Source: an uncultured Desulfosarcina sp.
GTDB lineage: Bacteria; Desulfobacterota; Desulfobacteria; Desulfobacterales; Desulfosarcinaceae
Assembly (NCBI GenBank): GCA_963674945.2
Contig: CAXXWQ010000004.1
Coordinates: forward strand, 803,806 to 827,805
Length of the DNA: 24,000 bases
Reading direction: 5' to 3'
Numbering within the stretch: the stretch's first letter is position 1; every line of letters starts with the position of its first letter. Below the pieces are notes generated by a model. The model did no database searches and was not told the DNA's origin. It saw nothing but the letters and a program-made list of their open reading frames with translations. The translations under genes and the position numbers were made by a program. Positions 2,661-22,503 of this stretch are shown here, in pieces.

Positions 2661-3017
2661 ATGCCCAGAAAAGCAAACAAGATCTCGACCCGCTGGATTC
2701 GTGAAAACCGTGAGGCATTCAGAGATTTTCTCGATGAAACCGACTTCCCCGATCCGGAACGGCTGGGAGAACGCGGGCCTAAGTTCAAGTATCCAGAATG
2801 GCTGATCATGTTCATTGCGATTCTGTCTGTTAAATTGAAAGTCAAAAGCTACGTTCAAATTCACAAGATGGCGGTCAAATACTGGGACATTATCGCCCAG
2901 GACATGGAACTGACACCCATCAGTGAAAAACAGCTCAGGGACCGGTTAAAAAAAATCCGTCATTTCCCTGGAAACCCAGCAGCGTTCATTTTTCAGCTAT
3001 TTCCTGAGCTTGAGTAA
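2661..3017 (+). CDS. IS transposase, N-terminal ORF (orfA)
   Basis: 118 aa lying directly upstream of, and 8 nt overlapping, the DDE-domain ORF inside the same IR-bounded element. Confidence 0.7.
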   Translation: MPRKANKISTRWIRENREAFRDFLDETDFPDPERLGERGPKFKYPEWLIMFIAILSVKLKVKSYVQIHKMAVKYWDIIAQDMELTPISEKQLRDRLKKIRHFPGNPAAFIFQLFPELE

Positions 3018-3663
3018 AGACCGGATTGTCAGCGCGGACAAGATGATGAACAGGGCCAAAGGTCCGGTCTGGCACAAGAAACAAAAAGATCAGGGCATTA
3101 TTCCCAAAGGGCTGCGCGGCATCGATAAAGAGGCCACCTGGTGCAAATCCCAGGCTGCCGGTTGGGTTTACGGCCACGGGTCATTTTCACTGACCTCGCA
3201 CAAGCATCCGGTGCTGGGCTGCTTTGTGTGGATGCGAAACAGCGCCAATGAAGCCAAACGCATGTGGTTGGAAACGTTTCATGTCAAAGATCAGGTGGAC
3301 TATATCGCCATGGACTCGAAAGCCGATGATGCTTTATTGTTCCGTGAGTTCAAGAGGCAACGTCACATGAACCTGATCACCAGTTGTCGTGCAACCATGG
3401 ATAAAACAATGCCTCGCAAGAAGATGATCGCTTTCATGAGTAAGCCGAAACACAAAAAGATCTACCGGGAACGTGCCTATAAGGTTGAGCCGATGCAAGG
3501 TCTGGTGAAAGACATCTTTGAGTTAGACCGTTGCTGGATGCGCGGTAACGATAATAATCGGTGGTTGTTTGCCGCCATGGGTCTAACCATTCAAATGCAT
3601 CAGCTTCAAGCATTTAAGCAAGGTCGATCAACTTGGAATATCAAAGAACAGGTCTTGGGATAA
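3010..3663 (+). CDS. IS transposase, DDE catalytic ORF (orfB), in the +1 frame relative to orfA
   Basis: DKEATWCKSQAAGWVYGHGSF, IAMDSKADD and YRERAYKVEPMQGLVKDIF match the D..D..E region pattern of IS5/IS1182-type transposases. The only start is TTG. The protein sequence appears continuous across the orfA/orfB junction (..FPEL/SKDRIVSADKM..). Confidence 0.75.
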   Translation: MSKDRIVSADKMMNRAKGPVWHKKQKDQGIIPKGLRGIDKEATWCKSQAAGWVYGHGSFSLTSHKHPVLGCFVWMRNSANEAKRMWLETFHVKDQVDYIAMDSKADDALLFREFKRQRHMNLITSCRATMDKTMPRKKMIAFMSKPKHKKIYRERAYKVEPMQGLVKDIFELDRCWMRGNDNNRWLFAAMGLTIQMHQLQAFKQGRSTWNIKEQVLG

Positions 3664-3685
3664 ACTCCCCGACCCCTGAATTAGC

Positions 3686-4228
3686 TCAAATGTGAATTAT
3701 TTCATGTTCATCAAACCAACCTTGTTCAAGAGTGAAATTTCTTACCTTCTGTGGCTCTTTGGTATAAGCAACAATAGCTAAACTTTCCTCGGCACGGCTA
3801 CAGGTGACATAAAAAAGTCTACGGGTACGATCAATGCTTGTTTCTTTTCCTTCTTCTTCATTTTTAAGGTCAGTAGAAGTAGGATCTTTAGCTCCGAATA
3901 GCTTTTCATAGTTAAACCAACGACCACGAGCTTCATCATCATCGAGAATCACCATAACACGAGGGAATTGAAGACCCTTGATGCCTTGATGGGTTCCAAA
4001 ACAGGATTCAGATTCATCGGAGATGTACCTAATATATTCTTCAAACTGGCTGAATTTGCATTGTAATGCCGTATCCCATGCCTCTATAACCGGGTCATTT
4101 TCCGGTTCCTCAGAGTGTTCCTCCGAAGCGCCTTCTTGATCCTCATTTAATCTATTGGCTATTGGAAGTAATGTGTCAGGAATCAGGAAAATACCACTAT
4201 TGAATACCTCTTTTAATACATCCCTGAA
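3686..4228 (-). pseudogene. UvrD/PcrA-like superfamily-1 helicase, C-terminal ~180 codons only
   Basis: The frame is open from 4228 with no start. It contains THQGIKGLQFPRVMVILDD (motif V region) and RRLFYVTCSRAEESLAIV (motif VI / UvrD_C). The listed 89-aa ORF 3686..3955 is only the part after an internal Met. Walker A and the N-terminal domains are absent. Confidence 0.7.
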
Positions 4229-4409
4229 TCAGTGGCCTAATTTTTGCTGTTAGGATTGGCGCGGGGCGATTGCCTCACACACCATCATTTGTTGATAATT
4301 TTTCTCACTATTTTCAAATTTCGAAGGAATTTTGCTCCTGTTTCTCATTCTTTAGCCATAGCAAATCACCAAGCAAATGCCTGTAAAATTGTTCTTTTAA
4401 AAATTATAG

Positions 4410-5780
4410 CTACTTCATAGCGGAAAGCAAATTCAGACGAAGATAAATCCGATCCATCAGTTTGGAAAATGGATTGAGTTGGCCAAAGGATATGTACCAT
4501 TTTCTACTTCTGGTTACTAATCGACCGGCCATATACATCAAGTCCTGCATGACTGTCCGGATTCGACGCCGGGTAACTTTCTTCCGGCGTATACCGGGCA
4601 ATTCAGTCGGATCACTCTCTTCGATGCTGATTTGTCCGATAATCCGTAGCATGTTGTACGTCAGCATCGCCAAATGAAGAATCAAGCTATTGGTGGAAAA
4701 ATGACCGCTCGGCAAGCGCTCCAGGCCCATGTCGGATTTGAGTTCGGAGTGAAACTGCTCGCTGGTACCGTGATCGTGATAAAGTCGAATCACCTCATCC
4801 GGTGGCAACTGTGCGAGGCTGCACCAATAGGTATCGATCTGATACTCGGGGAACAGCAGTACTTGGCCCTTTTTGGTATGCCTTTCGGTAACCTCAAAGA
4901 TGATTGGGTAGCGCAATGGATTGCCGTTGATGTCTTCAATCGTCTTTCCGATCCATACACATTTTCCTGAGCGGCAATGCTGTTGCTTGCCGGATTTTTT
5001 TGCCAGATCAACCCACTTTTGAACAGATTCTCTACGCAAATTGCGTTTGATGATAAAGTGGACATTCTTTCGTGAATCGTCAGGAAAGTTGTCTTGACTG
5101 TCGTTTCCTGAATCCAACCTCATCAAAATAGGCTGATCGGTAATTTGCCTGGCATAATCCAAGGTGGCGTTGATAAATTCGGGGGTGTTTTTCTGGCAGT
5201 GTTGTTTTCCTTCTCTGAACTCAAGATTCACCAGATACCCCTCGGTGCCCAGGTAGGCAAAGATCGGAGCGAAGCCATCCGTGCCTTTGTAGGTTCTGGA
5301 AACGCCTTCCTTTTGAGTCTTTGAGTTGTCAAACGGACTCACATCCATATCCAAAGGAAGGAAATCACCCGCACTGGTTTGGATGGGTGAAATCGCCGGA
5401 GCGCAGGATCGAACCAAATCAACGCCTGCATCCTTAATCAGCTTATCGGCTTGGTTGCCGATCAAATCGATTCGCTGACGCAATGTCGGGCTTGACGGGC
5501 ATGCACGATTGCCAATGGCCTTGTTGAAAAATTCTTGCTTCTCACGAAAAATCTCGATCGCATCGTAATCAGGTTTACCAATACTCATGAGAGCAATCAT
5601 CGAAGCTAAAATGTCACCATGAGAAATTTTCGGGTCTACACAATGGACGCCGTTGATCTTTTCGAAACGGAACCTGAAATTTATCGCATCAAGTAATGCG
5701 CCGATATTGATCAATCCGCTATGACTGGCAAGTTTTTCCATCTCGTGTTTTATGGTGATCGGACGCCGCATTGATTTCAC
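4410..5780 (-). CDS. IS1380-family DDE transposase
   Basis: 456 aa. DMDVSPFDNSKTQKEGVSRTYKGTDGFAPIFAYLGTEGYLVNLEFREGKQH and LYHDHGTSEQFHSELKSDMGLERLPSGHFSTNSLILHLAMLTYNMLR match IS1380 family signatures. A GGAGGTG RBS lies 6 nt upstream of the ATG. Confidence 0.85.
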   Translation of the reverse strand: MKSMRRPITIKHEMEKLASHSGLINIGALLDAINFRFRFEKINGVHCVDPKISHGDILASMIALMSIGKPDYDAIEIFREKQEFFNKAIGNRACPSSPTLRQRIDLIGNQADKLIKDAGVDLVRSCAPAISPIQTSAGDFLPLDMDVSPFDNSKTQKEGVSRTYKGTDGFAPIFAYLGTEGYLVNLEFREGKQHCQKNTPEFINATLDYARQITDQPILMRLDSGNDSQDNFPDDSRKNVHFIIKRNLRRESVQKWVDLAKKSGKQQHCRSGKCVWIGKTIEDINGNPLRYPIIFEVTERHTKKGQVLLFPEYQIDTYWCSLAQLPPDEVIRLYHDHGTSEQFHSELKSDMGLERLPSGHFSTNSLILHLAMLTYNMLRIIGQISIEESDPTELPGIRRKKVTRRRIRTVMQDLMYMAGRLVTRSRKWYISFGQLNPFSKLMDRIYLRLNLLSAMK

Positions 5781-5806
5781 CTCCGAAGTGAGCGTTTAGT
5801 GCCCTA

Positions 5807-5835
5807 ATATTACCATAATATATATGTTTTATCAA
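5807..5835 (-). promoter_or_regulatory. sigma70-like promoter for the IS1380 transposase
   Basis: The minus strand reads TTGATA (5835-5830), a 17-nt spacer, then TAATAT (5812-5807), about 25 nt upstream of the transposase ATG. Confidence 0.5.
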
Positions 5836-5839
5836 TTGG

Positions 5840-6283
5840 TTATAGTGTTTTAATCAGGTTTTGTGCCACGGAAACAGGTACATCATTGAGAGAAGGGTCT
5901 GAATTACCGGACCAGAGAGAATATAGTGCATTAACTGCATCTTTTGCCTTGGTGATTTCCCCTAATGATTTAGTAGAATTTTTTAGTGCATCTTTTTTAA
6001 TTATTGGCGAGTTCTCTCTCATTATCCTTGATACGGCGAATTCATCACCTGTTTGCTTCGCCTTTACTAAGGGCAATACTTTTTTTGAGAATAAAGAAAC
6101 TCCAGATAACTTACCATCAAGCAAGCCGGTTTTTAGTCTATTGACACGATATAAAGGATCAAAAAAGTCAGAAAAACCGCCACGATTAGCAGCCATATGA
6201 TGCTCTAATGTTAATATTTTAACTGATTCTTGAGAAGTATCCTCCCAGAGTTGATCGTCAGTTACCGTAACCGTTTTTCGCAT
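5840..6283 (-). CDS. hypothetical protein (147 aa), third gene of the XRE-ImmA/PIN operon
   Basis: ORF overlapping the PIN gene end by 22 nt. I recognise no motif and see no clear RBS. The last ~6 codons may derive from the adjacent IS end, so the gene may be 3'-truncated. Confidence 0.45.
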   Translation of the reverse strand: MRKTVTVTDDQLWEDTSQESVKILTLEHHMAANRGGFSDFFDPLYRVNRLKTGLLDGKLSGVSLFSKKVLPLVKAKQTGDEFAVSRIMRENSPIIKKDALKNSTKSLGEITKAKDAVNALYSLWSGNSDPSLNDVPVSVAQNLIKTL

Positions 6284-6750
6284 TCAGGAATTGGCAATCT
6301 TTTATTTACCTTCATCAACAAAGTCAGTTTCTCAAAAGCCTTTTTATGATCGATAATATTCTCTTTAACCAACTGATCCATCACCCAAAGGCTTCCATGG
6401 ACACGAATTTTCTCTTCACGAGCAGTTTTTCGAAGTGGTTTATCACCGGTCAGCAGGATTGCGGACAATTCTTTGGCAAGAAACAGGCAGGAACAATCGG
6501 GAAATGATAAAGCAGCCGAATACGTATTTTTCAATAGCACAACCTTTTCCAACTGGTCTGCGTTTAGAGGGTAAATTTCAATTTGGCCGCTTTCAAATGT
6601 TTTTTGGTAGCTTTGGAGCGTCTGATCGTCGAATTCACCCAATACGGCTTCCGTGATCATTTTCTCAAAGGGAAGTCTACAAAATTCGTCTATAAGATCA
6701 ATATCGAGCAGATCGAAAAGAATATTGGCATCGTTGACGATGATTTTCAT
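6262..6750 (-). CDS. PIN-like domain nuclease (DUF3368/DUF4411-like)
   Basis: 162 aa. Acidic residues sit at PIN-typical positions: an N-terminal IIVNDANILFDLLDIDL strand-helix, FPDCSCLFLAKE, and LLTGDKPLRKTAREEKIRVHGSLWVMDQL. The start overlaps the upstream stop as ATGA (6747-6750). Confidence 0.7.
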   Translation of the reverse strand: MKIIVNDANILFDLLDIDLIDEFCRLPFEKMITEAVLGEFDDQTLQSYQKTFESGQIEIYPLNADQLEKVVLLKNTYSAALSFPDCSCLFLAKELSAILLTGDKPLRKTAREEKIRVHGSLWVMDQLVKENIIDHKKAFEKLTLLMKVNKRLPIPECEKRLR

Positions 6751-7802
6751 GCAACCAACTGAAACTTTCTGCGAAACTGCGGCAATTTAACATTCAGCAG
6801 CTCAGCTCCTTTGGACATGGTGACAATATTTTCAGCCACAGCATAATAGATCAGTTGTTTGAAACGGTTTGCCCGCTCCTTTCCAAGATATTCGCCAGGC
6901 TCGTTCTGGCGCCATCCCATGGTATTCACATGGATACAAAAACGCCTATAGCGACTGTCGGTGATTAGCTTGAGGTGGTGAGCCCGGGCCATTATCGCGG
7001 CTAATGAAATTCCGTATATGCCCTTGAGCTTTTTTAGCTCCCATTCAACGATATTCTGACGTTTCCCGAATAATTCATTGGAAATCGCACTATTTGGCAG
7101 TAAAAATGCGCCGGCAAAAGCATGACACATCTTTTCTTTCAACCTTGGCTCCATGACTTCCCGCTTTGGGAATTTCAATAGGATATGTCCCAGTTCATGC
7201 GCCAAGGTGAACCGTTTTCGCACCAATTCGAAAGAGGCGTTTAAAATGATCACCGGAATCTTTCCGACAAAACCCGATAACCCATCGAAACGATCATTTG
7301 CCTCGATCTCGTAAATACAAATCCCCTTATCTTCCAACAACTCCATGAGATTGGAAATGGGACTTTCGCCCAAGTCCCATTCGTCCCTTAATTTTTCCGC
7401 TGCTGCATCGACATCATTGTAAGATCTGATTTTAAAATCCTGAAGCGGATTGTTGAAGAGAGCTCGTTGACCGACTATTTCCTCAATCTCAATATAGCGT
7501 TCCAAAAAATCGAGGGTCCGGCTCTCGATACGATCAATCTCCTTTTGGCTGAGTCTCGATTTTTTACGGAACTCGATCTTTGACAAGTTGACGGTTGATT
7601 CCCTGAAAAAATAACCGGTTCCAAGGTTCAAGGCATTCGCCAATGCCAATAGATTATTGCCATCGGGCTTCATCTGCCCCTTTTCGTACTTGCTAATCGC
7701 CTGTTTGGTTACCCGTTTGTCGGTTGCGTCTGCGAGCGCTTGCTGGCTCATCCCGGCCATTTTTCGGGCAGCTTTTAGGCGTTGTCCGAATTTTTCGCTC
7801 AT
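6747..7802 (-). CDS. XRE-family HTH fused to an ImmA/IrrE (M78, COG2856) zinc metallopeptidase
   Basis: 351 aa. The N-terminal segment QRLKAARKMAGMSQQALADATDKRVTKQAISKYEKGQ is a Cro/C1-type HTH. The central HELGH (HEXXH) motif sits in an ImmA/IrrE-like context (FTLAHELGHILL). Confidence 0.85.
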   Translation of the reverse strand: MSEKFGQRLKAARKMAGMSQQALADATDKRVTKQAISKYEKGQMKPDGNNLLALANALNLGTGYFFRESTVNLSKIEFRKKSRLSQKEIDRIESRTLDFLERYIEIEEIVGQRALFNNPLQDFKIRSYNDVDAAAEKLRDEWDLGESPISNLMELLEDKGICIYEIEANDRFDGLSGFVGKIPVIILNASFELVRKRFTLAHELGHILLKFPKREVMEPRLKEKMCHAFAGAFLLPNSAISNELFGKRQNIVEWELKKLKGIYGISLAAIMARAHHLKLITDSRYRRFCIHVNTMGWRQNEPGEYLGKERANRFKQLIYYAVAENIVTMSKGAELLNVKLPQFRRKFQLVA

Positions 7803-7825
7803 TATTTTTCCTCCAGTGGCTTTAT

Positions 7826-7863
7826 GGTTGACATATTATGACTTTTTATTATTTTTGTCAACC
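7826..7863 (-). promoter_or_regulatory. promoter with a palindromic operator for the XRE-ImmA operon
   Basis: GGTTGACA (7826-7833) and TGTCAACC (7856-7863) form a perfect 8-bp inverted repeat. The minus strand reads TTGACA, a 17-nt spacer, then TAATAT (reverse complement of 7833-7838), ~25 nt upstream of the gene start. Confidence 0.55.
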
Positions 7864-7894
7864 TTCACAAGAGACGATTATACAAATAAAATTT

Positions 7895-8942
7895 CTGGGG
7901 TATGCACTTAAATCCAGCACATACTATATGTTGTGGCCCAGGTCATCGTCAATTGGATCGAGATTTAAATTTGCTGCCCCTTCCAAAAACGGTAACGATG
8001 CACCTTTAAGAGTACTAGCTGGGGCAGGGTCCACCATCACGGCCTGTTGGACCAGCCTGTAAAATAGTTTTCCGCGAGACACTGATGTTCTACGGTTGAA
8101 CCTGAATGTGAATTCATCCAAATAGTACATCAAATGAGACGGTCTGACCGCCCCTTGATAAGTACCAAGTAACCATCGTTTCATGAGCGACGCTACCAAA
8201 TGTACAATCTTCAAGTCATGCGATGGAATCGCAATATGCTTAAATCCTTTATCGCCAAGGCTGCTATAGCCGGGCCAATCATCCGTCCTGATGGTGCTGC
8301 CTGGCTGGGCGATTTCTTGTACAAATTGAGTCAGACTATCTCCCGATGCGTCTTCGAGGTGCCAGAGTCTAATTCGCCCAATTCCTTTTCGGCCTTTATC
8401 CTCCACGGCAATACCGACCAAAGCTTTACCTTCAGCACCCCGACCGCGTTTTCCAGACTTTTTCCCACCGACATAGGTTTCATCAACTTCAACAATCCCG
8501 GACAATCGGTCACGTCCTGGACGAACCATTGCTCTTCGAAGTTTATGGAGCCATTGCCAGGCGGTATTATAACTCCCAAGGTTAAGTACTCTCTGAAGCC
8601 CAAGTGCATTAGCTCCGTACTTCTGACCTGTAATGTGCCACATAGCCCGAAACCAAAGAGACAAGGGCTTTCTGGTGCCGTGAAAAATTGTACCGGAAGT
8701 TATCGTAGATTGATTTCCACAATCAGTACAATGAAACTGGGATCGTTTAGTTCTCCACGAGGATGCAGAACCGCAATGAGGGCAACGGAAGCCTTCGGGC
8801 CATCTAAGAGCCATCAAATAGTCAGTGCATCCAGCTTCAGAGCTAAATCGTTTTTCAAATTCTATCAACGTTCTGGGGTAATCTTCCTCCATAGACTGGT
8901 ACACTATATGTTGTGGCCACTGGAGTCAAGTGCATACCCCAG
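7895..8942 (-). mobile_element. IS1595-family insertion sequence, 1048 bp
   Basis: 23-bp IRs are CTGGGGTATGCACTTAAATCCAG (7895-7917) and the reverse complement of 8920-8942, CTGGGGTATGCACTTGACTCCAG, matching 21/23. A perfect 8-bp TSD, TAAAATTT, lies at 7887-7894 and 8943-8950. Confidence 0.9.
7924..8904 (-). CDS. IS1595-family (ISXO2-like) transposase
   Basis: 326 aa. It has an N-terminal zinc ribbon (CPHCGS...CTDCG) and a DDE region (VEVDETYVGG, IRTDDWPGY). The ORF begins at GTG 8904, and an ATG at 8892 is an alternative start. Confidence 0.9.
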   Translation of the reverse strand: MYQSMEEDYPRTLIEFEKRFSSEAGCTDYLMALRWPEGFRCPHCGSASSWRTKRSQFHCTDCGNQSTITSGTIFHGTRKPLSLWFRAMWHITGQKYGANALGLQRVLNLGSYNTAWQWLHKLRRAMVRPGRDRLSGIVEVDETYVGGKKSGKRGRGAEGKALVGIAVEDKGRKGIGRIRLWHLEDASGDSLTQFVQEIAQPGSTIRTDDWPGYSSLGDKGFKHIAIPSHDLKIVHLVASLMKRWLLGTYQGAVRPSHLMYYLDEFTFRFNRRTSVSRGKLFYRLVQQAVMVDPAPASTLKGASLPFLEGAANLNLDPIDDDLGHNI

Positions 8943-8974
8943 TAAAATTTAAAGGTTTTTGAAAGAAGGAGGAT

Positions 8975-9238
8975 CTAAGGAAGGTTTTTACTTGGCTTGA
9001 ACTTCACTACGCTTCGCCCTTTGATTTTAATCTTTTCACCATTCTGGGGATTATGTCCCATGCGTGTTTTCCGATAAACGTTTCTAAAAGTGCCGAATCC
9101 AACTAATGTGACCTTGCTATTCCTTTTCTTTAGTCCTTCTTTTATGCCATCGAGAGCAGAATCAAATGCCGCTTTTGCAGTGGTTTTTGGGATGTCGGCA
9201 TCTTTGGCGATCTTCTCGATGAGTTCAGCTTTGGTCAT
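8975..9238 (-). CDS. HU-family nucleoid-associated DNA-binding protein
   Basis: 87 aa. MTKAELIEKIAKDADIPKTTAKAAFDSALDGIKEGL...VTLVGFGTF...RMGHNPQNGEKIKI is a canonical HU/IHF fold sequence. Confidence 0.85.
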   Translation of the reverse strand: MTKAELIEKIAKDADIPKTTAKAAFDSALDGIKEGLKKRNSKVTLVGFGTFRNVYRKTRMGHNPQNGEKIKIKGRSVVKFKPSKNLP

Positions 9239-9596
9239 GTGGCCTCCTTCTTGGTCTGGGATTATATTTGGCGGTTATCGGATATCCTCGTTTCTGAGGC
9301 AGGAACGCTACTTAACCTAATACAGATTGCCGAATGTCAACGATCTACTCTTTCCTTCAATTCTTTGCCCGCCTTGAAAAAGGGCAGCTTTTTCGGCGCG
9401 ATTTGAACCTGCTCACCCGTTTTGGGGTTGCGTCCAGTATAGGACTTGTATTCTTTCACGAAAATAGAACACAAGCCCCGAATTTCGACGCGATCCCCTT
9501 TGGCCAATGCATCTGATATTGTGTTGAAAAACAAGTTCACAACCGCCTCAGCCTCTGTTTTGGATAGGCCATTGGCGTCCCTCAGGGCTTGGATTA

Positions 9597-10529
9597 CAAG
9601 CCATCTCAAAAAAAGTAGTATTTCGCCGATGATAAATCGCAACGTAACCGGCTGAAGTTATATGAAATACGGATGACAGCCTGTAAGTGTTTGAAAAAAT
9701 TGAAAATAAATCTAGACATAACATCCTGAATATGCAATATAATCAGGATGGAACTCACAAAAGAACAATGGAAGCGGATAGAGCCTATTATAGAAGCGTC
9801 AACCCCATCCAAAGATCCCAGAGGACGACCGGCAAGGAATCCACGCGATGTTCTCAATGGGATTTTGTGGATCATGCGAACGGGTGCACCCTGGAAAGAT
9901 TTGCCCCAGCGGTACCCGCCGTACCAGACATGCCATCGGCGGTTCCAGCAATGGGTTCGGCAAGGGGTGTTCCGACGCATTGCCATTGAGCTGGTCGAAG
10001 ACCTCAATGAACGCGGCAAGATCGATATTCGAGAGGCGTTTATAGATGGCAGCTTCGCTCCGGCAAAAAAAGGGGTCTTGCTGTCGGCAAGACAAAGCGT
10101 GGCAAAGGCACCAAGATCATGGCAATCGCAGACGCTGCTGGTCTTCCTGTCGCCGCTCACGTGGAAAGCGCTTCGCCCCACGAGGTAAAGCTTGTTGAGG
10201 ATACCATAGACGCCAGTTTTACCGAGTATGCACCCGACAAGTTGGTTGGCGACAAGGCCTACGACAGCGATAAACTTGATGACCAACTCCTTGACGATCG
10301 TGGTGTTGAAATGATCGCCCCGCATCGTAAAGGCCGGAAAAAGCCAAAAACCCAAGACGGCAGGAAACTGAGGCGTTATCGACGCAGATGGAAGGTAGAA
10401 CGCCTGTTTGCATGGCTTCAGAACTTCAGGAGGTTGATTGTACGCTACGAATACCATGTAGAGAATTTCCTGGCTATGGTCCAACTTGGTTGTATCAAAA
10501 TACTACTTCGTTTTTTTTGAGATGGCTTG
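9597..10529 (+). mobile_element. IS5-family (IS427/IS1031-like) insertion sequence, ~933 bp
   Basis: The IRs are CAAGCCATCTCAAAAAAA...GTAGTATT at 9597 and its reverse complement ending at 10529. The first 18 nt are identical. TA is duplicated at 9595-9596 and 10530-10531. Confidence 0.85.
9748..10520 (+). CDS. IS5-family transposase OrfA/OrfAB (orfA 9748..10188; orfB frame to 10520, reached by a -1 frameshift)
   Basis: A slippery run of seven A's followed by G lies at 10065-10072. The -1 reading gives ..[33 protein letters not shown].., joining the HTH part to the DDE part ([18 protein letters not shown]). Confidence 0.85.
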
Positions 10530-10712
10530 TAGTTCAATTTTGTTCATGTGTTCGGCAATCCTGTTAACTCTAAGTGTTGGTACGATAGGGTGGGAATTGG
10601 CAAAAGGGTATACTTTGTATATATATTCTGTCAATGATTAAAATATGTTATCAATTGTCGTGAAGCCTGTTTCAGGACTCATACATACTTCTTTAGAGAA
10701 GTAAATTTTTAC

Positions 10713-10741
10713 TTGACGTTCCATGTTTGATTTCATAAAAT
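10713..10741 (+). promoter_or_regulatory. putative sigma70-like promoter ~360 nt upstream of ssb
   Basis: TTGACG (10713-10718), a 17-nt spacer, then TAAAAT (10736-10741). Confidence 0.4.
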
Positions 10742-11102
10742 ATGTACAATTATCTGCTCAATGAATTCCCCATTCATTGTTCCCTCCGCCACTGAGCGGA
10801 CTTCGGGATGACAGGTTATCACCTGAACAATCCTTTTTTCAGATCCAATCATTTCTTCAATGGATCGGTGTTTATCGATCAGCCGCCACTCTCAAAACGG
10901 TTTTAGCCAAACCTTGAGAAGAGGCATTTCTGCAGCGGCCAAGCCAAACAGCAGAATTGTCAATCGGCAGCAGTGTCACATCCACACACACAAATAATTA
11001 AAATATTCCATTAAAACATTCATTAACAAAGGGACCAAGGCACTTTTGCGCAATTTGGCGCCACAAGTGTTTTGTTTCCCACCAAAAGGAAAGGAGCATT
11101 TC

Positions 11103-11807
11103 ATGAACAAGTCAATCATCATCGGAAGACTGGGAAAAGAGGCCAAGTTTTTTAAAAATGGCGAGCATACCGCTTGCCGATTTCCATTGGCGGTGAAGGA
11201 GACATGGAAAAACAAAAACAATGAACTGCAAGAGCGGACCGAGTGGGTGAATGTAGCTGCCATAGGCAGTGATGCCGATCAAATGAAAGGCGTCTCCAAG
11301 GGTGCGCTCGTGTTTGTTCAGGGAACCACCAACACAGGTACCTACACAAAGGAAGATGAAACCCATTACTATTTCGAGATCCGGGCCAGAAGGCTTCGGA
11401 TTCTATCGGAAAAAGGTGAGCAAACATTCAAAGATCTGGACCAGAATGAAGTCGCTTTGGTCGGTCGTCTCGGACAAAATCCGCTGACACCCAAGGAAGG
11501 GATCACTCATTTCTCCATCGCATGCAATGATTATCGCAACGGTCAAGAAACAACCCAATGGATCAGCATTGCTACATTCAACGGTTTGTCCGACAGCGCG
11601 GCCAAAATTTTAAGCAAGGGCCGGATGGTCTACGTGGAAGGGAAAATACGGACGAGAAAATACGACAAGGATGGGCAAACTCGTTACGCCACCGGTATTA
11701 TCGCAAACAGGTGGCGAGCACTGGATGCCAATCCAAGAAAGCAAGAGGCGAAAGAATATCATGATTCCGCACCCCATGATTATGCGGATAGCGATATTCC
11801 GTTTTAA
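11103..11807 (+). CDS. ssb: single-stranded DNA-binding protein with two tandem OB folds
   Basis: The ATG at 11103 is preceded by AAGGAAAGGAG. Residues 1-105 (MNKSIIIGRLGKEAKF...ERTEWVNV...) and ~118-215 (VALVGRLGQNPL...TQWISIATF...GRMVYVEGKIRTRKYDKDGQTRYAT) each look like a complete SSB OB domain. The acidic tail ends DSDIPF. Confidence 0.85.
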   Translation: MNKSIIIGRLGKEAKFFKNGEHTACRFPLAVKETWKNKNNELQERTEWVNVAAIGSDADQMKGVSKGALVFVQGTTNTGTYTKEDETHYYFEIRARRLRILSEKGEQTFKDLDQNEVALVGRLGQNPLTPKEGITHFSIACNDYRNGQETTQWISIATFNGLSDSAAKILSKGRMVYVEGKIRTRKYDKDGQTRYATGIIANRWRALDANPRKQEAKEYHDSAPHDYADSDIPF

Positions 11808-11813
11808 ACCAAG

Positions 11814-11853
11814 CCCCTGGACTCTAAGTTTAATGACCTCTTAGATCCAGGGG
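11814..11853 (+). terminator. hairpin after ssb (weak terminator or leader hairpin)
   Basis: CCCCTGGA-C-TCTAAG (11814-11828) pairs with CTTAGA-TCCAGGGG (11840-11853). It is followed only by a short TTT. Confidence 0.4.
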
Positions 11854-11876
11854 TTTAACCGACTACGAGGATATCG

Positions 11877-12656
11877 ATGGAAAAAATATTTCAAAAGCTC
11901 GAGAGGTATTTTGGCCCATGGAAAATCGGTGTCTTGAATCCGGACAGAGGACTATGGTCGCTTTCACCATCTATGAACAAAATTGGATACCTGAAGGCAA
12001 TGAACGCCAGCGGCTATCACATCTTCATGAAACCTTTGAATGAACGGTACTACCTGCTTTTAGACGATATCCCGGAGACAAAGCTGAAACACCAAAAAGA
12101 GCCAAAAGGATTCAAACCCGGACGACTGGTGGTTGAAACCAGCCCCGGGAATTTCCAGGTATGGATCAAAGCCGGACGGAGTATGAGCAATCCGGAGAAA
12201 AGATACTGGATCCGATATTTCGGTGCAGATCGAGCCTGTGATCCCAATTTGCGTTGGGGCCGCTGTCCGGGATTCCGGAATTGTAAGGAAAAATATCGAG
12301 AAAAAGGACGATTTCCCCTTGCTCGGCTCATCTGGGTGGATTGGCAAAATGTTGCTCGTATTCCGAGTGTGTCTTTACCGGAGGAATCAGCCGACCGTAA
12401 AATCCCAGATGGAAAAGAAATACGGCGCACTCATACCAGCGAAGCCATTTTTCGCACAGACTATGAACGAGGGGATGAGTCGGCAACCGATTTTGCCTAT
12501 ACGCTGGCATTGCTACGGAGAGGCACTGACCCGAAAGTGATCGCCGATAGACTATTGGAAGAAAGAAAAGATTGGACCCACCACAATGGGCCAAGGCGCC
12601 AGGCCGATTACCTTGATCGGACGATCAGGCGCGCCGCCGAAATTATCAATCAATAG
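11877..12656 (+). CDS. RepB-type DNA primase-like protein
   Basis: 259 aa. The acidic pair in YYLLLDDIP, VVETSPGNFQVWIK, and the C-terminal DESATDFAYTLALLRRG helix bundle resemble the RSF1010 RepB'-type primase catalytic and helical domains, as far as I recall that family. Confidence 0.55.
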   Translation: MEKIFQKLERYFGPWKIGVLNPDRGLWSLSPSMNKIGYLKAMNASGYHIFMKPLNERYYLLLDDIPETKLKHQKEPKGFKPGRLVVETSPGNFQVWIKAGRSMSNPEKRYWIRYFGADRACDPNLRWGRCPGFRNCKEKYREKGRFPLARLIWVDWQNVARIPSVSLPEESADRKIPDGKEIRRTHTSEAIFRTDYERGDESATDFAYTLALLRRGTDPKVIADRLLEERKDWTHHNGPRRQADYLDRTIRRAAEIINQ

Positions 12657-12682
12657 AAGATATCAATCCATTTTTTAACAAA

Positions 12683-12771
12683 CCCCGGATCCGGGGCACC
12701 GCAATGGTTCCCCGATATGGTGGGTTTCTCTCTTTGGAGGGACCATTGCGGTTTTATCCAAAGGGAGGCAA
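12683..12771 (+). promoter_or_regulatory. structured 5' leader, copy 1 (upstream of DUF932 gene)
   Basis: P1 is CCCCGG/CCGGGG (12683-12696). P2 is an 11-bp perfect stem, 12698-12708 with 12742-12752. The pyrimidine tract 12727-12734 can pair either with GAGGG (12737-12741) or with the SD AAGGGAGG (12761-12768). Confidence 0.55.
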
Positions 12772-13575
12772 ATGATGAAATCACAAAACATCCCCCTCAC
12801 CAATGATCAGATCGTCAAATTGGCGCCGTCTGCAGGGGCAATATCCCCACATGAAATGGTTTCGAACCGATATAGTTTTGTGCCAACCATCGAGGCCGTT
12901 GATTTGTTGAGATCGGCCGGATGGGAACCCGTTCATGTGAAGCAGTCCGGAACGAGGAAAAAGGACCGCAATGGCTATCAAAAACATATCATCCGTTTCA
13001 TGCAGGGCGCCCTGTCAACCGACCAGGAACGCGTCGATCTGGTGATGACTAACTCCCATGACCGAGGCTGCGCCTTTCTGCTTTCCGCATCTATCTGGCG
13101 CAAAATATGCGGCAATGGTCTGATGGTGTCCTCAGAACTGTATAATTTTTCACACAGGCATGTAGGTTTTGAGAGAAATGTTTTCCTGGATTCTGCCTAT
13201 CGGATAGCCGAAGGCGCCGGAGATATCGCCGCACAAGTGCAAAATTTAAAGGTAATCGACCTTACCCCCAATGAAAAAGGCGTATTTGCCATGGCTGCGC
13301 ACAAATTGGTCTATGACGATGTCGAAAAGGCACCGATCTTGCCAGCACAACTACTGAAGGAGCGTCGCTACGACGACAACGGCAATGACCTGTGGTCGAC
13401 ATTCAATGTGGTTCAGGAGAACATCATGAAGGGGGGTATATATGGAAGAAAACGAAGTGCAAATGGCCATATTCGTCATGTCAAAACCCGTCCCGTGAAA
13501 TCCATCGATCGAGACATCAAACTCAACAAGGCATTGTGGGTCCTGACTGAGGAGATGGCCAAATTAAAATGCTGA
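12772..13575 (+). CDS. DUF932 domain protein (typical of conjugative-element and prophage antirestriction regions)
   Basis: 267 aa. YSFVPTIEAVDLLRSAGWEPV, YQKHIIRF, LVMTNSHDRGCAF, CGNGLMV and RPVKSIDRDIKLNKALW follow the DUF932 pattern. The second ATG (12775) has better SD spacing. Confidence 0.85.
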   Translation: MMKSQNIPLTNDQIVKLAPSAGAISPHEMVSNRYSFVPTIEAVDLLRSAGWEPVHVKQSGTRKKDRNGYQKHIIRFMQGALSTDQERVDLVMTNSHDRGCAFLLSASIWRKICGNGLMVSSELYNFSHRHVGFERNVFLDSAYRIAEGAGDIAAQVQNLKVIDLTPNEKGVFAMAAHKLVYDDVEKAPILPAQLLKERRYDDNGNDLWSTFNVVQENIMKGGIYGRKRSANGHIRHVKTRPVKSIDRDIKLNKALWVLTEEMAKLKC

Positions 13576-13635
13576 AGGAGTAAACAGGTAACGCTATACG
13601 GTTCTTCAAAGAATGCGTTAAATCAAACAAAAAAT

Positions 13636-13720
13636 CCCCCGAACCGGGGAACCGTAAAGGTTTCCCGATGGGGATGTCCTCCCTTTTCTTGGGAGCCTTT
13701 GCGGCTGACAATAGGGAGGG
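13636..13720 (+). promoter_or_regulatory. structured 5' leader, copy 2 (upstream of radC-like gene)
   Basis: P1 is CCCCG/CGGGG (13637-13649). The P2 stem pairs 13652-13661 with 13695-13704. The anti-SD CCTCCCT (13678-13684) is perfectly complementary to the SD AGGGAGG (13713-13719). An alternative hairpin pairs CTCCC (13679-13683) with GGGAG (13691-13695). Confidence 0.55.
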
Positions 13721-14263
13721 ATGAAAGTGAACAAAAAAGAATATCGTTTTTATGCTTATAAGCTGCATATGGTCAAGGAACAAGAAATCCATTTGTGCAG
13801 CGGCCAAACAATCCACAGCAGTTTTTCAGGTTCCAAATTAATCAAAAAAGTGATCCGCCAACTCGGTCAGACAGATCGAGAAAACTTCGTAGTGCTGATG
13901 CTGAACGCGAAATTTAAACCCATCGGCACGAACCTTGTGTCCATCGGAACTCTTACCCGGAGTATCGTACAGCCCAGGGAGATCATCAAAGCGGCATTGA
14001 ACATGCCCTGCAAGGCCTTGATCCTTGGACACAATCACCCATCGGGAGATCCCTCGCCTTCCATGGAGGACAAGCTGATCACACTCATGGTAATGGCGTC
14101 CGCGCATCTGTTCGATCTGGAGATTCTGGATCACATTATCGTGGACATGGATTCTGATGCCTACCTTTCTTTTGCGGACGAAAAGATCATTGAGGATACG
14201 AAACACAAAGTGTCTTCCGTATTGGATCAATTTTATAAAATGGAAAGCAGAATACGACTATGA
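13721..14263 (+). CDS. radC: RadC-like JAB/JAMM domain protein (short, mobile-element type)
   Basis: 180 aa. LILGHNHPSGDPSPSMEDKLIT is the JAMM H-x-H-P-S-G motif context of RadC-like proteins, and there is no N-terminal HhH domain. GTG at 13727 is an alternative start with better SD spacing. Confidence 0.85.
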   Translation: MKVNKKEYRFYAYKLHMVKEQEIHLCSGQTIHSSFSGSKLIKKVIRQLGQTDRENFVVLMLNAKFKPIGTNLVSIGTLTRSIVQPREIIKAALNMPCKALILGHNHPSGDPSPSMEDKLITLMVMASAHLFDLEILDHIIVDMDSDAYLSFADEKIIEDTKHKVSSVLDQFYKMESRIRL

Positions 14264-14277
14264 AATAAGGTGACATC

Positions 14278-14631
14278 ATGACCGATATTATAAGGAAGCA
14301 TTCCCAAAATCCTTATGCACATGTAGTGGAATGGATCGATCGGCATGAAGGAACCGGCTCGGCCAATGGACTGGCGAAACTGATTCTCTCTTTATGGTCT
14401 GAAGATGCCGCTTTTAGCCTACGTGAATGCATCTCTTCATTCGACGATACACGTTTGGCATGGGCCGAAGAAATGACCTCGCACTTTTTGCGTTATCGTT
14501 CGGATCGTTTCTTGGATGATGCTGCAAAAAAAGTGGCTTTCAAATGCCCTCATATCATTGAAAAGGGGCTTGCCGGAAGCCATGCCAAATGTGATTGGGA
14601 ACGCGCTAAAATCGTTATAGAGAAAAGCTGA
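14278..14631 (+). CDS. hypothetical protein (117 aa)
   Basis: The ORF starts 14 nt after radC-like with a GGTGA RBS-like sequence and is followed by a strong terminator. I recognise no motif. Confidence 0.55.
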   Translation: MTDIIRKHSQNPYAHVVEWIDRHEGTGSANGLAKLILSLWSEDAAFSLRECISSFDDTRLAWAEEMTSHFLRYRSDRFLDDAAKKVAFKCPHIIEKGLAGSHAKCDWERAKIVIEKS

Positions 14632-14632
14632 T

Positions 14633-14697
14633 CAATCAAATGATCCGACCGTCTGTTTTTGAAATAAAAAAAACAGACGGTCGGAAATCATGATTGA
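14633..14697. terminator. long perfect hairpin, bidirectional terminator-like
   Basis: TCCGACCGTCTGTTTTT (14644-14660) pairs with AAAAACAGACGGTCGGA (14669-14685). The outer arms TCAATCAAATGA and TCATGATTGA extend the stem. A/T runs lie on both sides of the loop. Confidence 0.7.
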
Positions 14698-14842
14698 TGA
14701 TGAAATATCTCAATGCCAATAACCATTTGTAATATCATATACAAATTCACGGATTCCCTTATTATTCTCCTTTATTTTGTAAGCCGAAAAAAACAAATTG
14801 TCGACTGATGACTATTTTTTTCGGCACACGAGAAGGGCAATA

Positions 14843-14999
14843 GGGAAAAAATCGCATTTGCCAATATCCCATTCTTTGTAACCGCTGGTAATTACATCAG
14901 CGTCAATAATAAAGCGATTATCCTTACCCTGAACCTGTTTCTCAGGGCGTCGTCTATGGCGATGCGGGGTAAAATCGCATTAACCAATCTTTGTTATTA
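14843..14999 (+). repeat. two ~30-bp imperfect direct repeats upstream of the integrase-like gene
   Basis: The two copies are GGGAAAAAATCGCATTTGCCAAT..CTTTGTAA (14843-14881) and GGGGTAAAATCGCATTAACCAATCTTTGTTA (14966-14997). An inverted AATCGC half-site lies at 14914-14919, and the hairpin CCCTGA..TCAGGG lies at 14927-14947. Confidence 0.5.
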
Positions 15000-15053
15000 A
15001 TTCGGTAGCATTTCTCCGTATTAATAGATCGCTATAAGATTACAAAAAAGGGG

Positions 15054-16016
15054 GTGATTGATTTGAGTAACTCAACGAGAACCGATACGTTGGTAATGCA
15101 AGCGATACGAGTGATACAAAAAAACAAATCAGGATCGGCAAAAACCAGACACAACCATATCAAAGAAGCCAGAAGATTTGTTACGACGATTCGAGAGTTG
15201 GGTTACGGTGTGAAAAGATGGAAGAATGTCACCAACATTCACGTACAGAAGGCGGTCAACAGGTGGAAAGAAGAAGGCCTTCAGACGGCAACGATCAAGG
15301 AATATTTAGCCGGCGTAAGGACGGTTTGCAGAATGTATGGAAACGACAGAATCAATCCGAACAATGCAACATTTGGCATCGCAAATCGTGTGTTCGTGGA
15401 TAATCGAGATAAATCATTGCCCCAGGAAGTATTTGAAAAAGCGGTAACAGAGTTGAAGAAAAGCGATCACAGTGATGATAAAAGAGTGGCTGCCCAATTG
15501 CAATTAGAACGTTATCTTGGTTTGAGGGTGGAGGAGTCGTCAAAATTTAATGCGCATCAGGCATTGATGACAGGTGGAAGAGTGTTCATACAGCATGGAA
15601 CCAAAGGTGGAAGAGAGCGGATAATAAACGACCTCACGGAGAAAGGGAAAGAGGCGATTGAATATGCAAAAAATATATCCGGGATGAACAATCTGATACC
15701 AAATAACCACAGTGAAAAACAGTGGATTCAAAAATATTATCGGATAACAAGATCCAAGGGAATCTCAAAAAAAGAATGCGGCGCATCGAGTCACGGATGT
15801 CGACATGCTTATGCACAGGAACGTTACGAAGAGATCACGGGATTTAAAGCCCCATGTAAATTTGAATCAAAAACAGAATTTAGACAAAATGCGGCAACAA
15901 TAGCCGGAGAAAAATGGAGGAAACTAAACCAGGATGCAAGGCAGATAATAAAGGCCGAGTTGGGTCACGGCCCGGATCGTGACGATGTTGTAAGCCAATA
16001 TTTGGGAGCAACATAA
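15054..16016 (+). CDS. integrase-domain protein (tyrosine recombinase-like)
   Basis: 320 aa. Candidate catalytic residues appear in order: R in YLGLRVEES, K in HGTKGGRER, H-x-x-R-H in SSHGCRHAYA, and H plus Y in LGHGPDRDDVVSQYLG. The start is uncertain (GTG 15054, TTG 15063 or ATG 15096) and follows AAGGGGG. Confidence 0.8.
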   Translation: MIDLSNSTRTDTLVMQAIRVIQKNKSGSAKTRHNHIKEARRFVTTIRELGYGVKRWKNVTNIHVQKAVNRWKEEGLQTATIKEYLAGVRTVCRMYGNDRINPNNATFGIANRVFVDNRDKSLPQEVFEKAVTELKKSDHSDDKRVAAQLQLERYLGLRVEESSKFNAHQALMTGGRVFIQHGTKGGRERIINDLTEKGKEAIEYAKNISGMNNLIPNNHSEKQWIQKYYRITRSKGISKKECGASSHGCRHAYAQERYEEITGFKAPCKFESKTEFRQNAATIAGEKWRKLNQDARQIIKAELGHGPDRDDVVSQYLGAT

Positions 16017-21427: not shown

Positions 21428-22503
21428 TTGGGGTCGGAAGTGGGCAAGGCATTGGCTGCGTCAACTAAAACGCCGCATAATATCAGTCTTACACTGCGCA
21501 ACTGGATGATCGGTTTCTACATTACCGAATATGAGCAGAACGGCGCCGACCGTGCTAATTATGGTGACCGATTACTTGGTCGACTTTCCGAGAGCTTGGC
21601 CTCCAAGGGAGTCAGTCGTATCGAAGAACGCGAATTGCGGCGCTATCGACAGTTTTATCAAACTTATCCGCAGATTCGGGAGACAGTGTCTCCCGAATTG
21701 TATCAACGCCTGCTCGGTCCGCTGGTGACGATTGATGAAAAAAAACGGGAGACAGTGACTCCCGAATTGTCTCTTCCGGGAAAGGATCTGATAGCAAGAT
21801 TGTCCTTTAGCCATTTTGCTGAACTGCTCAAATTCGAAGATCATATTCAACGGGCTTTCTATGAAATAGAGTGCATCCAAGGAAATTGGTCAGTGCGGGA
21901 ACTAAAACGCCAGGTTGGTAGCCTCTATTATGAACGTTCCGGGCTCTCTAAGAACAAAAAGAAGTTGTCTGAAATGGCGCGGCAATGCGCCCAGACGATC
22001 AATCCCATGGTGACGGTTCGTGATCCTTATGTCTTTGAGTTTTAGGGCTCAAATCAAAGGAAGTGATGAGCGAATCCCACCTGGAAGACCAGTTGTTGGA
22101 CAAGCTGCAAGAATTCCTGTTGGAACTTGGCCATGGTTTTTGCTTTGAGGCGCGTCAAAAACGCATATTGATCGGTGATGAGCACTTTTTTGTGGACTTG
22201 GTCTTTTACCATAGAATACTCAAGTGCCATGTGTTGGCCGAGCTAAAACTGGAAAAATTCAACCATCAAAACATCGGACAGCCTAACACCTATGTGAGCT
22301 GGTATCGTGACAACATGATGGCTGACGGCGATAATCCGCCTGTGGGCATCTTGCTCTGTACCGGCAAGAACCTGACACTTGTCGAATATGCTCTGGCCGG
22401 CATGGACAACCACTTGTTTGTATCAAAATACATGTTGGAACTGCCCAAGAAAGAGCAGATGCAACAATTCATTGAACAGCAGATCAAAAAATCAGGCGTT
22501 TGA
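21428..22503 (+). pseudogene. DUF1016/YhcG-family PD-(D/E)xK nuclease gene, frameshifted and probably 5'-truncated
   Basis: Two ORFs (21428..22045 and 22063..22503) together match one DUF1016 protein. The junction ..DPYVFEF / LGLKSKEVMSESHLE.. is restored by adding one T to the T4 run at 22040-22043. The nuclease core is FVDLVFYH...LAELKLEKF. The first ORF has only a TTG start and a short N-terminus. Confidence 0.8.

Follow-up and report, generated by a model that had tools for sequence, protein, structure and literature searches.

The question raised by a 24,000-nucleotide (nt) stretch of DNA from an uncultured Desulfosarcina sp. (GCA_963674945.2, contig CAXXWQ010000004.1, positions 803,806 to 827,805; hereafter the window) concerns two similar intergenic regions, one preceding a DUF932 gene and the other a RadC-like JAB gene: what are they, and what do they do for the genes behind them? 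On the comparative and modelling evidence given below, each is probably a cis-acting intercistronic mRNA leader that sets the translation initiation of DUF932 or radC, and a two-state switch is proposed for it. Comparative evidence from homologous sequences supports a function of the leaders in the mRNA sense, with occlusion of the Shine-Dalgarno (SD) sequence. The window copies are an elaborated subtype of a large multi-copy leader family. In mobile elements of sulfate-reducing bacteria (Desulfobacterota) this family stands before many of the early genes, in operons of establishment or leading-region type, and it may gate or time the production of their proteins.

The regions 12683-12774, before DUF932, and 13636-13726, before radC, align as two copies of one element (copy 1 and copy 2; Table 1). 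The initial annotation had recognised them as the same element at 12683-12771 and 13636-13720; an independent covariance model (R2, see below) ranks both on top, and the coordinates and base pairs given then were all correct when checked base by base. RNA-fold z-scores of the two copies against dinucleotide shuffles were -3.0 and -3.9, and the plus strand of the leaders folds better than the minus strand. Copies 1 and 2 are each kept at their own position in the related loci L001, L002, L003, L081, L082 and L083, with copy 1 additionally kept in L098/L099, and a third, more diverged leader copy precedes a gene for a 108-aa protein in L083 and L098. Homologues of copy 2 also share a conserved 5' flank, AATCAAA-N5-AAT. 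The radC leader of L081 (L081:1517-1616) carries two substitutions in the tract complementary to the SD (anti-SD; CTCCC to ATACC), has the lowest model score (76 bits), and may be a decaying or relaxed copy.

The pairings of the element are named here by its C and G tracts: C1:G1 forms hairpin P1, G1:C2 forms hairpin A, C1:G2 forms the outer stem of the 5' domain D1, and C2:G3 extends the long-range helix P2 between strands a and a'. The outer stem of D1 pairs C1 at 12683-12686 with G2 at about 12719-12724 in copy 1, and 13634-13639 with 13670-13675 in copy 2. Hairpin A is paired in 98.5% of the cells of alignment A9, which, like alignment A8, was made against the model structure, so that pairing percentages are inflated. 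P2 was confirmed in the sequence as described earlier, with 11 perfect base pairs in copy 1 and, in copy 2, 10 pairs including two T-G (13652-13661 with 13695-13704). The compensatory change from T12705-A12745 to A13658-T13698 between the copies was also correct. The anti-SD:SD helix of copy 1 (12727-12737 with 12758-12768) comprises 11 pairs, including 2 wobbles. The partner set of P1 in copy 1 is an alternative to the nested D1 fold.

The Desulfosarcina-type set comprises 17 related sequences in three paralogue groups. The proposed pairing of the anti-SD tract with the SD is present in 13/13 aligned copies, with 7-11 bp, and a compensatory T-A to A-T change was found in L003_c1 and L002_c2. 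Loss of P2 or of the anti-SD:SD pairing in homologous loci had been considered in the initial annotation as evidence against the structure; both are conserved there, with a degraded anti-SD tract in the later-found copy L081_c2, and both show compensatory changes.

About 35 loci of Desulfobulbaceae and Desulfocapsaceae have a simpler leader before DUF932. It consists of a C-tract, a G/C hairpin, a G-tract and the strand GTCTTGYCCC, which pairs with GGAGRCAAGAC, that is, with the SD and the spacer up to the ATG, while strands a and a' are missing. In an alignment based on MAFFT, the SD helix of these DUF932 leaders is 94% paired and shows double changes at 4 of its 10 pairs; none of 500 shuffles reached the observed value. 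The covariance model R2 was built from 35 Desulfobulbaceae DUF932 leaders only, with no window-type sequence included. When searched against the window, it found copy 2 first (18.6 bits, E 3.6e-4) and copy 1 second (12.8 bits, E 0.029), followed by a match with E 0.6; the E-values are rough, and the copy 1 match is marginal and poorly aligned. R2 also matches Desulfosarcina copies at other loci. In the reciprocal search, the window-type covariance model R1 gave 14-20 bits for the leaders of Desulfobulbaceae, and its matches fall exactly on the leader coordinates.

R2 gave 162 matches in 95 loci. Among the best 150 of these 162, 130 lie on the gene strand; 129 of the 130 end at a start codon, and 126 of the 130 are followed by an open reading frame (ORF) of at least 40 aa. 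The genes behind R2 matches encode DUF932 (47), RadC (20), SSB (10) and SNF2-like helicase (6) proteins, members of two unknown families (14 and 13), and DUF3846, DUF2786 and DUF6927 proteins, with up to five or six leader copies in one locus. The SD-pairing strand differs from gene to gene, and in each copy it is complementary to the SD and spacer of that copy. In radC leaders CATTGGTTCCCC pairs with GGAGGAAGCCAATG, so that the ATG is covered too. The conserved positions of the family are almost only C and G runs. Both window copies show the 5' module CCCC / CGGGG..CCCCG / GGGG of the family profile, lie on the sense strand, end at the start codon and carry a strand complementary to the SD of their own gene.

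Across 143 distinct R2 matches, 93.6% of the cells are paired, compared with 78% in shuffles and at most 74% in slid controls. Double changes occur at 15 of 16 pairs, and 327 cells are changed on both sides where 101 are expected. These figures lean towards structure, because the alignment was fitted to it; the MAFFT-based result agrees. G-U wobbles account for 212 of the 2036 paired cells. On the complementary strand these wobbles would turn into A-C mismatches, which favours a sense-strand RNA.

Rfam 15 gave no match at the leaders, neither for the whole window at the gathering score, nor for the region 11750-14350 at E up to 10, nor in 21 related loci. This is in agreement with the earlier statement that no annotated feature explains the element. 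The radC, STAXI and traJ-II motifs (RF01754, RF01728 and RF01760; Weinberg et al. 2010, PMC2864571) are, similar to the leaders, structured non-coding elements beside ssb, antirestriction, integrase and radC genes of mobile DNA, and membership in the radC or STAXI motif had been considered possible. It has to be abandoned: because Rfam 15 gave no match, the leaders are none of these three motifs. STAXI, which consists of tandem pseudoknot repeats in Enterobacteria, often with UUCG loops (PMC2864571), is also a repeated element for which the question of RNA versus single-stranded DNA (ssDNA) was raised. In contrast to its tandem repeats, the leaders occur one per gene, about 950 nt apart and without UUCG loops, and each is tied to the SD of its gene. 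The literature searched contained nothing similar to the leader family. As for a new class, the other possibility considered initially, the element is absent from Rfam, but it is not an isolated class, being one subtype within a much larger family of multi-copy leaders.

Several other identities of the two regions were rejected or are unlikely. The sole plus-strand match to an intrinsic terminator or attenuator is a weak 5-bp stem in copy 2 (13670-13684), copy 1 has none, and T-rich tails after the G2:C3 hairpin are missing in many family members. On the minus strand at 13633-13653, the P1 hairpin of copy 2 and the A-run of its 5' flank read as a terminator-like stem followed by TTTTTGTTT, which could block antisense transcription into the operon. 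A promoter of the Frpo type is unlikely, since no hexamer pair was found in 12683-12771 or 13636-13726 and the longest helix has about 16 bp. Internal promoters were discarded: the elements contain no sigma-70-like hexamer pair, and one 9/12 match at 13543-13570 is within chance expectation. For a leader peptide, the ATG at 12716 is ACG in homologues and a 4-codon mini-ORF before copy 1 is present only in L002 and L081; sequence inspection revealed no conserved leader ORF inside the elements. A G-quadruplex does not fit either, with G-runs about 20 nt apart and too few runs in the simpler family members. An R1 match at 21664-21740 (20 bits) was spurious, caused by the perfect palindrome TTCGGGAGACAGTGTCTCCCGAA (21664-21697) inside a DUF1016 gene, and a DNA-pattern scan of viral contigs for hairpin A gave four matches, all of them unrelated hairpins or coding sequence.

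Two mutually exclusive folds are compatible with the Desulfosarcina-type sequences, each about 94% paired and each with a few covarying pairs. Fold I, the model of the initial annotation, combines P1 (CCCC:GGGG) with P2 (a:a', 11 bp) extended by C2:G3; its paired fraction is 91.5% for 13 sequences and 94.6% for 17. The long-range P2 covaries in homologues, with double changes at two positions, CG/UG/UA and AU/UA/UG (columns 24:75 and 27:72 of alignment A5). The GC hairpin P1 exists as described, but it competes with a more stable nested hairpin and its pairs are invariant across 13 sequences; because P1 never varies, it gives no covariation evidence. A local pairing of the anti-SD tract with an SD-mimic was seen in predicted copy 1 folds, but it is lost in copy 1 of L003. 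Fold II consists of D1, i.e. the C1:G2 stem around hairpin A, and of a second domain, in which the anti-SD:SD helix surrounds hairpin B. In the two alignments the paired fraction of fold II is 91.7% and 94.3%, and double changes occur in hairpin B as well as in the SD helix. Exactly those P2 positions that covary also make up the five-base loops of hairpins A and B (GCAAU and AUUGC). Therefore, a switch between folds I and II and a kissing contact between the loops within fold II both fit, and the data are equally compatible with two exclusive folds and with a kissing-loop fold.

In thermodynamic models, the SD-open fold (P1 and P2) and the SD-closed fold are mutually exclusive and of similar energy, and constrained folding placed them within 3 kcal/mol of each other in 10 of 14 sequences. 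The SD is predicted to be mostly paired, with a mean unpaired probability of 0.16. In silico masking of the G1 tract opens the SD in 11 of 17 copies in the model, while masking of a or a' closes it. Prefix folding of both window copies gave P1, then D1, then P1 with P2 once a' is made, and finally D1 with the anti-SD:SD helix once the SD is made. The structural claim for the leaders is well supported; switching is a plausible hypothesis.

The mechanism proposed for the switch starts from the closed fold, D1 plus the anti-SD:SD helix, in which, as the comparative data show, the anti-SD tract pairs with the SD and adjacent bases, so that the ribosome site would be occluded in the ground state. 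In the putative open fold, a:a' together with P1 would hold the anti-SD tract away and leave the SD free. According to prefix folding, the open fold would be most stable just before the SD is transcribed, so that nascent transcripts may be briefly translatable and then relax to the closed fold. Alternatively, a factor binding the G1/C1 module might flip the leader. Such a factor is suggested because the 5' module is conserved across leaders of unrelated genes. We tentatively consider, with rather low confidence, that the leaders could be modular self-timing switches giving a short pulse of protein per transcript, or could be flipped all together by one factor recognising the module.

Several points weigh against a two-state leader. 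All leader folds are predictions, and the covariation counts are not independent events, because the 17 Desulfosarcina-type sequences are related and represent three paralogue groups only, with A8 and A9 inflating the pairing through their alignment to the model structure. Neither of the proposed pairings C1:G2 and G2:C3 covaries more than base composition would predict, and the anti-SD tract is degraded in one copy, L081_c2. Four copies are predicted to be SD-open at equilibrium and the third paralogue is closed by about 14 kcal/mol, so a uniform switch energy is not conserved. Moreover, the a:a' covariation in hairpin-loop bases is explained equally well by a static closed fold, which is the main alternative reading and has a real, though clearly minor, chance of being correct. 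The SD would then always be occluded, with the a and a' loops kissing and locking the closed fold, and the leader would keep DUF932 and radC translation low or stabilise or punctuate the polycistronic mRNA. In line with this, the closed fold is the minimum free energy (MFE) structure in 10 of 14 copies (in the third paralogue by the margin given above), hairpin B covaries (68:80 and 69:79 in A5, 73:98 and 74:97 in A9), a ligand-like conserved unpaired core and a known trigger are lacking, and a and a' are wholly missing from the simpler Desulfobulbaceae leaders. However, a kissing complex with fully paired five-base loops is sterically strained, the third paralogue cannot form a hairpin B of the copy 1 and copy 2 type and yet keeps 8 bp of a:a' with the C2:G3 extension, and the P2-extended helix is 94.6% paired across the 17 sequences.

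A coupling relay, by which a ribosome terminating upstream would cover the 5' C-tract, let the C and G tracts re-pair and free the SD, so that the downstream gene is translated only if the upstream one is, is improbable. The stop codon does lie 5-7 nt before the C-tract in 24 of 42 DUF932, 9 of 13 unk110 and 3 of 6 helicase leaders, and the C- and G-tracts are conserved though outside the modelled helices. In the window, however, these distances are 26 nt (copy 1) and 60 nt (copy 2), beyond the ribosome footprint, RadC and SSB leaders show no preferred stop distance, masking of the C-tract raises the predicted SD opening by only about 0.05 on average, and C1:G2 and G2:C3 lack covariation. Even less probable is an ssDNA element of the transferred strand, acting as a compact Frpo-type promoter or as a signal (ssi) for priming by the RepB-like primase, whose gene lies immediately upstream. 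Although ssb, antirestriction, DUF932 and relaxase genes form the gene context typical of leading or establishment regions, islands with several ssDNA promoters upstream of ORFs are known (PMC11541004), and a RepB-primase-like gene adjoins, neither leader has a -35/-10 hexamer pair, and helices of 6-16 bp are not long enough to imitate a promoter duplex. The conserved helix takes in the SD of the gene itself and sometimes its ATG, which have no role in priming or promoter function; about 10% of the pairs are G-U in the mRNA sense and would become A-C on the template strand; and the minus strand folds less well than the plus strand. Hardly credible, and the least probable of these explanations, is a riboswitch-like leader sensing a ligand or protein, with the shared 5' module (C-tract, G/C hairpin, G-tract) as a sensor flipping the SD helix. 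Leaders of unrelated genes have this module in common and differ in the strand that pairs with the SD, which is specific to each gene, and in silico masking of G1 opens the SD, but conservation of almost only C/G runs leaves no aptamer-type conserved junction or loop, no Rfam family matches, and no candidate RNA-binding protein was found, orf117 and the unknown proteins having no Pfam hits.

The leaders share features with several known systems. In the hok mRNA of plasmid R1, the tac, fbi, ucb and dcb elements refold; this plasmid transcript adopts metastable folds while it is being made and also uses long-range pairing. As in hok and in translational attenuation by ermC-type leaders, a chain of mutually exclusive helices would decide whether the SD is free; unlike these, the window leaders have no conserved leader peptide ORF and no known antisense RNA partner, are intercistronic and multi-copy within one operon, and are unrelated in sequence and architecture. 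RNA thermometers (ROSE, fourU) have weak U-rich stems and occur in the context of heat-shock or virulence genes. They also occlude the SD by a short 5' leader hairpin, whereas the leaders have long, G/C-rich SD helices of 7-11 bp and an additional alternative helix of 16 bp, the genes serve mobile-element establishment, and no ROSE or fourU family of Rfam matches. The intercistronic RNase III processing sites of the phage T7 early operon are irregular duplexes of roughly 20 bp recognised by RNase III. Similar to the leaders, there is one structured element per gene of an early polycistronic transcript that contains anti-defence genes, but only the leaders have a gene-specific anti-SD strand. 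Frpo elements are long hairpins whose paired arms rebuild the -35 and -10 hexamers and the UP element (PMC11541004). Frpo and ssi elements resemble the leaders in lying upstream of leading-region genes such as ssb, in several copies per island and with intrastrand pairing, whereas the leaders lack promoter hexamers and pair with the SD instead.

Leaders that sequester the SD are a well-known kind of regulator. The present family is absent from Rfam 15 and is organised in an unusual way: an operon can hold many copies, which have the 5' module in common, while the strand pairing with the SD is specific to each gene. Work on the first gene expression of conjugative elements after entry has centred on transcription, i.e. 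on ssDNA promoters and antitermination. If the present reading is true, multi-copy leaders hiding the SD add a translational layer to establishment genes (ssb, radC-like, DUF932, helicase and several unknown genes). If the leaders are indeed self-timing or jointly flipped switches, a reusable RNA device whose gene-specific strand can be swapped would control the early genes of mobile elements at a step after transcription. The modular build of the leaders would make the family a clean natural system for the duplication and retargeting of RNA switches, and engineered leaders could perhaps be modelled on it. It also singles out DUF932, a protein of unknown function that is widespread in mobile elements, as tightly controlled.

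The module in the window contains, on the plus strand, ssb, a hairpin, the RepB-primase-like gene, DUF932, the RadC-like JAB gene, orf117, an inverted repeat and the integrase (Table 1). The nearest relatives of its DUF932 protein belong to Desulfosarcina and other Desulfobacterota. More distant DUF932 loci have the gene order ssb, antirestriction, DUF932 and MobA/TraI relaxase, which is the layout of a leading or establishment region. The start codon of radC is probably the GTG at 13727 and not the ATG at 13721, as indicated by the alignment of homologues and because this ATG lies only 1-2 nt past the SD; copy 2 would therefore extend to 13726. Homologues likewise favour the ATG at 12775, not 12772, as the probable start of DUF932, and ssb probably starts at the ATG at 11103, not at the TTG at 11046. 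The inverted repeat gives a terminator-like match on the minus strand only and none on the plus strand. A search of the plasmid database gave no match, a protein scan of metagenomes gave 9 loci only, and a PDB sequence search with DUF932 and orf117 returned nothing useful.

Table 1. Coordinates of the leader copies, their parts and the surrounding genes in the window (P(unpaired), predicted probability of being unpaired).
Feature	Position	Strand	Remarks
ssb	11103-11807	+	First gene of the operon; Pfam SSB 8e-37; start codon checked
RepB-primase-like gene	11877-12656	+	Upstream of copy 1; Pfam RepB_primase 2.7e-21
Leader copy 1	12683-12774	+	Between RepB-primase-like gene and DUF932; R1 104 bits, R2 12.8 bits
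Copy 1, P1 hairpin CCCCG/CGGGG (C1:G1)	12683-12696	+	Seen in sequence and in P2-state fold
Copy 1, hairpin A (G1:C2 stem, loop GCAAT 12701-12705)	12692-12714	+	Inner part of 5' domain D1; centroid and MFE folds
Copy 1, strand a, ACCGCAATGGT (P2 5' strand)	12698-12708	+	11 perfect bp with 12742-12752
Copy 1, anti-SD tract TCTCTCTTTGG	12727-12737	+	Pairs with 12758-12768; masking raises predicted SD accessibility
Copy 1, SD-mimic (A)GGG(A)	12738-12741	+	Pairs with C2 in P2-extended fold, or with anti-SD locally
Copy 1, strand a', ACCATTGCGGT (P2 3' strand)	12742-12752	+	Doubles as hairpin B, loop ATTGC 12745-12749
Copy 1, SD region CCAAAGGGAGG	12758-12768	+	Sequestered in predicted closed fold; baseline P(unpaired) 0.11-0.13
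DUF932 gene	12775-13575	+	Downstream of copy 1, its proposed control; Pfam DUF932 2.7e-30
Leader copy 2	13636-13726	+	Between DUF932 and radC; R1 94 bits, R2 18.6 bits
Copy 2, hairpin A (9 bp, loop GTAAA 13654-13658)	13645-13667	+	MFE fold identical to centroid
Copy 2, strand a (P2 5' strand)	13651-13661	+	
Copy 2, anti-SD CCTCCCT	13678-13684	+	7 Watson-Crick pairs with AGGGAGG 13713-13719
Copy 2, strand a' (P2 3' strand)	13695-13705	+	Also hairpin B, loop TTTGC 13698-13702
Copy 2, SD AGGGAGGG	13713-13720	+	Start codon GTG 13727; baseline P(unpaired) 0.03-0.07
RadC-like JAB gene	13727-14263	+	Downstream of copy 2, its proposed control; Pfam RadC 2.9e-33
orf117	14278-14631	+	Precedes long inverted repeat
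Long inverted repeat	14631-14698	unstranded	Operon end after orf117; 30-nt arms
Tyrosine integrase	15054-16016		Downstream of inverted repeat

The hairpin at 11814-11853, between ssb and the primase-like gene, had been proposed as a degenerate relative of the leaders. Against the element's own model it scores 5.8 bits with E of about 5, and this proposal was dropped. The hairpin is intercistronic and conserved in its own right (L001:2124-2165, L002:3040-3079, L003:3049-3081), with arms CCCCUGGAUC...GAUCCAGGGG and a variable apex. In predicted folds, the last ssb codons (ATTCCGTTTTAA, DIPF tail) also pair with the start region of the primase gene (CGATGGAA), an arrangement that would suit translational coupling.

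Upstream of ssb, a terminator-like hairpin CACTTTTGCGC...GCGCCACAAGTG followed by TTTTGTTT was found at 11042-11075, about 30 nt before the ssb SD. It is kept in L001-L003 with compensating changes and, standing at the head of the operon, may be an attenuator. Among promoter-like sites, the best is TTGACG-17-TAAAAT at 10713-10741. An AbiEii/AbiEi pair immediately precedes ssb in L003; the window has this pair at 479-1841. The roughly 9 kb between it and ssb hold, at 3010-10537, genes for three transposases, an HTH-M78 peptidase and a PIN protein, together with an insertion sequence with 26-nt inverted repeats at 9589-9614 and 10512-10537. These look like secondary insertions into the island. 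At the other end of the module, a non-coding stretch of about 150 nt upstream of the integrase (window 14840-15050) is highly conserved in L001-L003. It repeats the motifs AAAATCGCATT / AAAGCGATTATCC / TAGATCGCTATAAG, for example at 14843-14865 and 14966-14988, which may be integrase arm sites or operators.

Other types of leader were found at more distant DUF932 loci. In Verrucomicrobiota (L064-L080, e.g. L065:3848-3973 and L073:3845-3970) a different conserved structured leader lies upstream of DUF932 and contains GTGCCGCC...GGCGCC...CCGG-loop-CCGG...GGCGGCR. RNAalifold gave 23 pairs for it, 12 of them with compensatory changes, and Rfam gave no match to this type in the four loci scanned (L053, L059, L065 and L069). 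An alternative long-range GCCGCC/GGCGGC pairing looks possible. Loci L090-L093 (69-73% identity) have another type of per-gene leader (e.g. L090:2658-2793, 3061-3196 and 3605-3740), in which a G/C hairpin with a GGCCAAC or GCCAGGA loop is followed by AACCCCAAC and then by the SD. These leaders precede ssb, ardA, DUF932 and the following genes, and a strong TTGACA-17-TATATT-like promoter with a perfect palindrome (ATATAACAGACTGTTATAT) is present upstream of ssb. In Desulfopila aestuarii (L042:5167-5331), a group II intron domain (RF02001, 130 bits) was found downstream of the DUF932 region.

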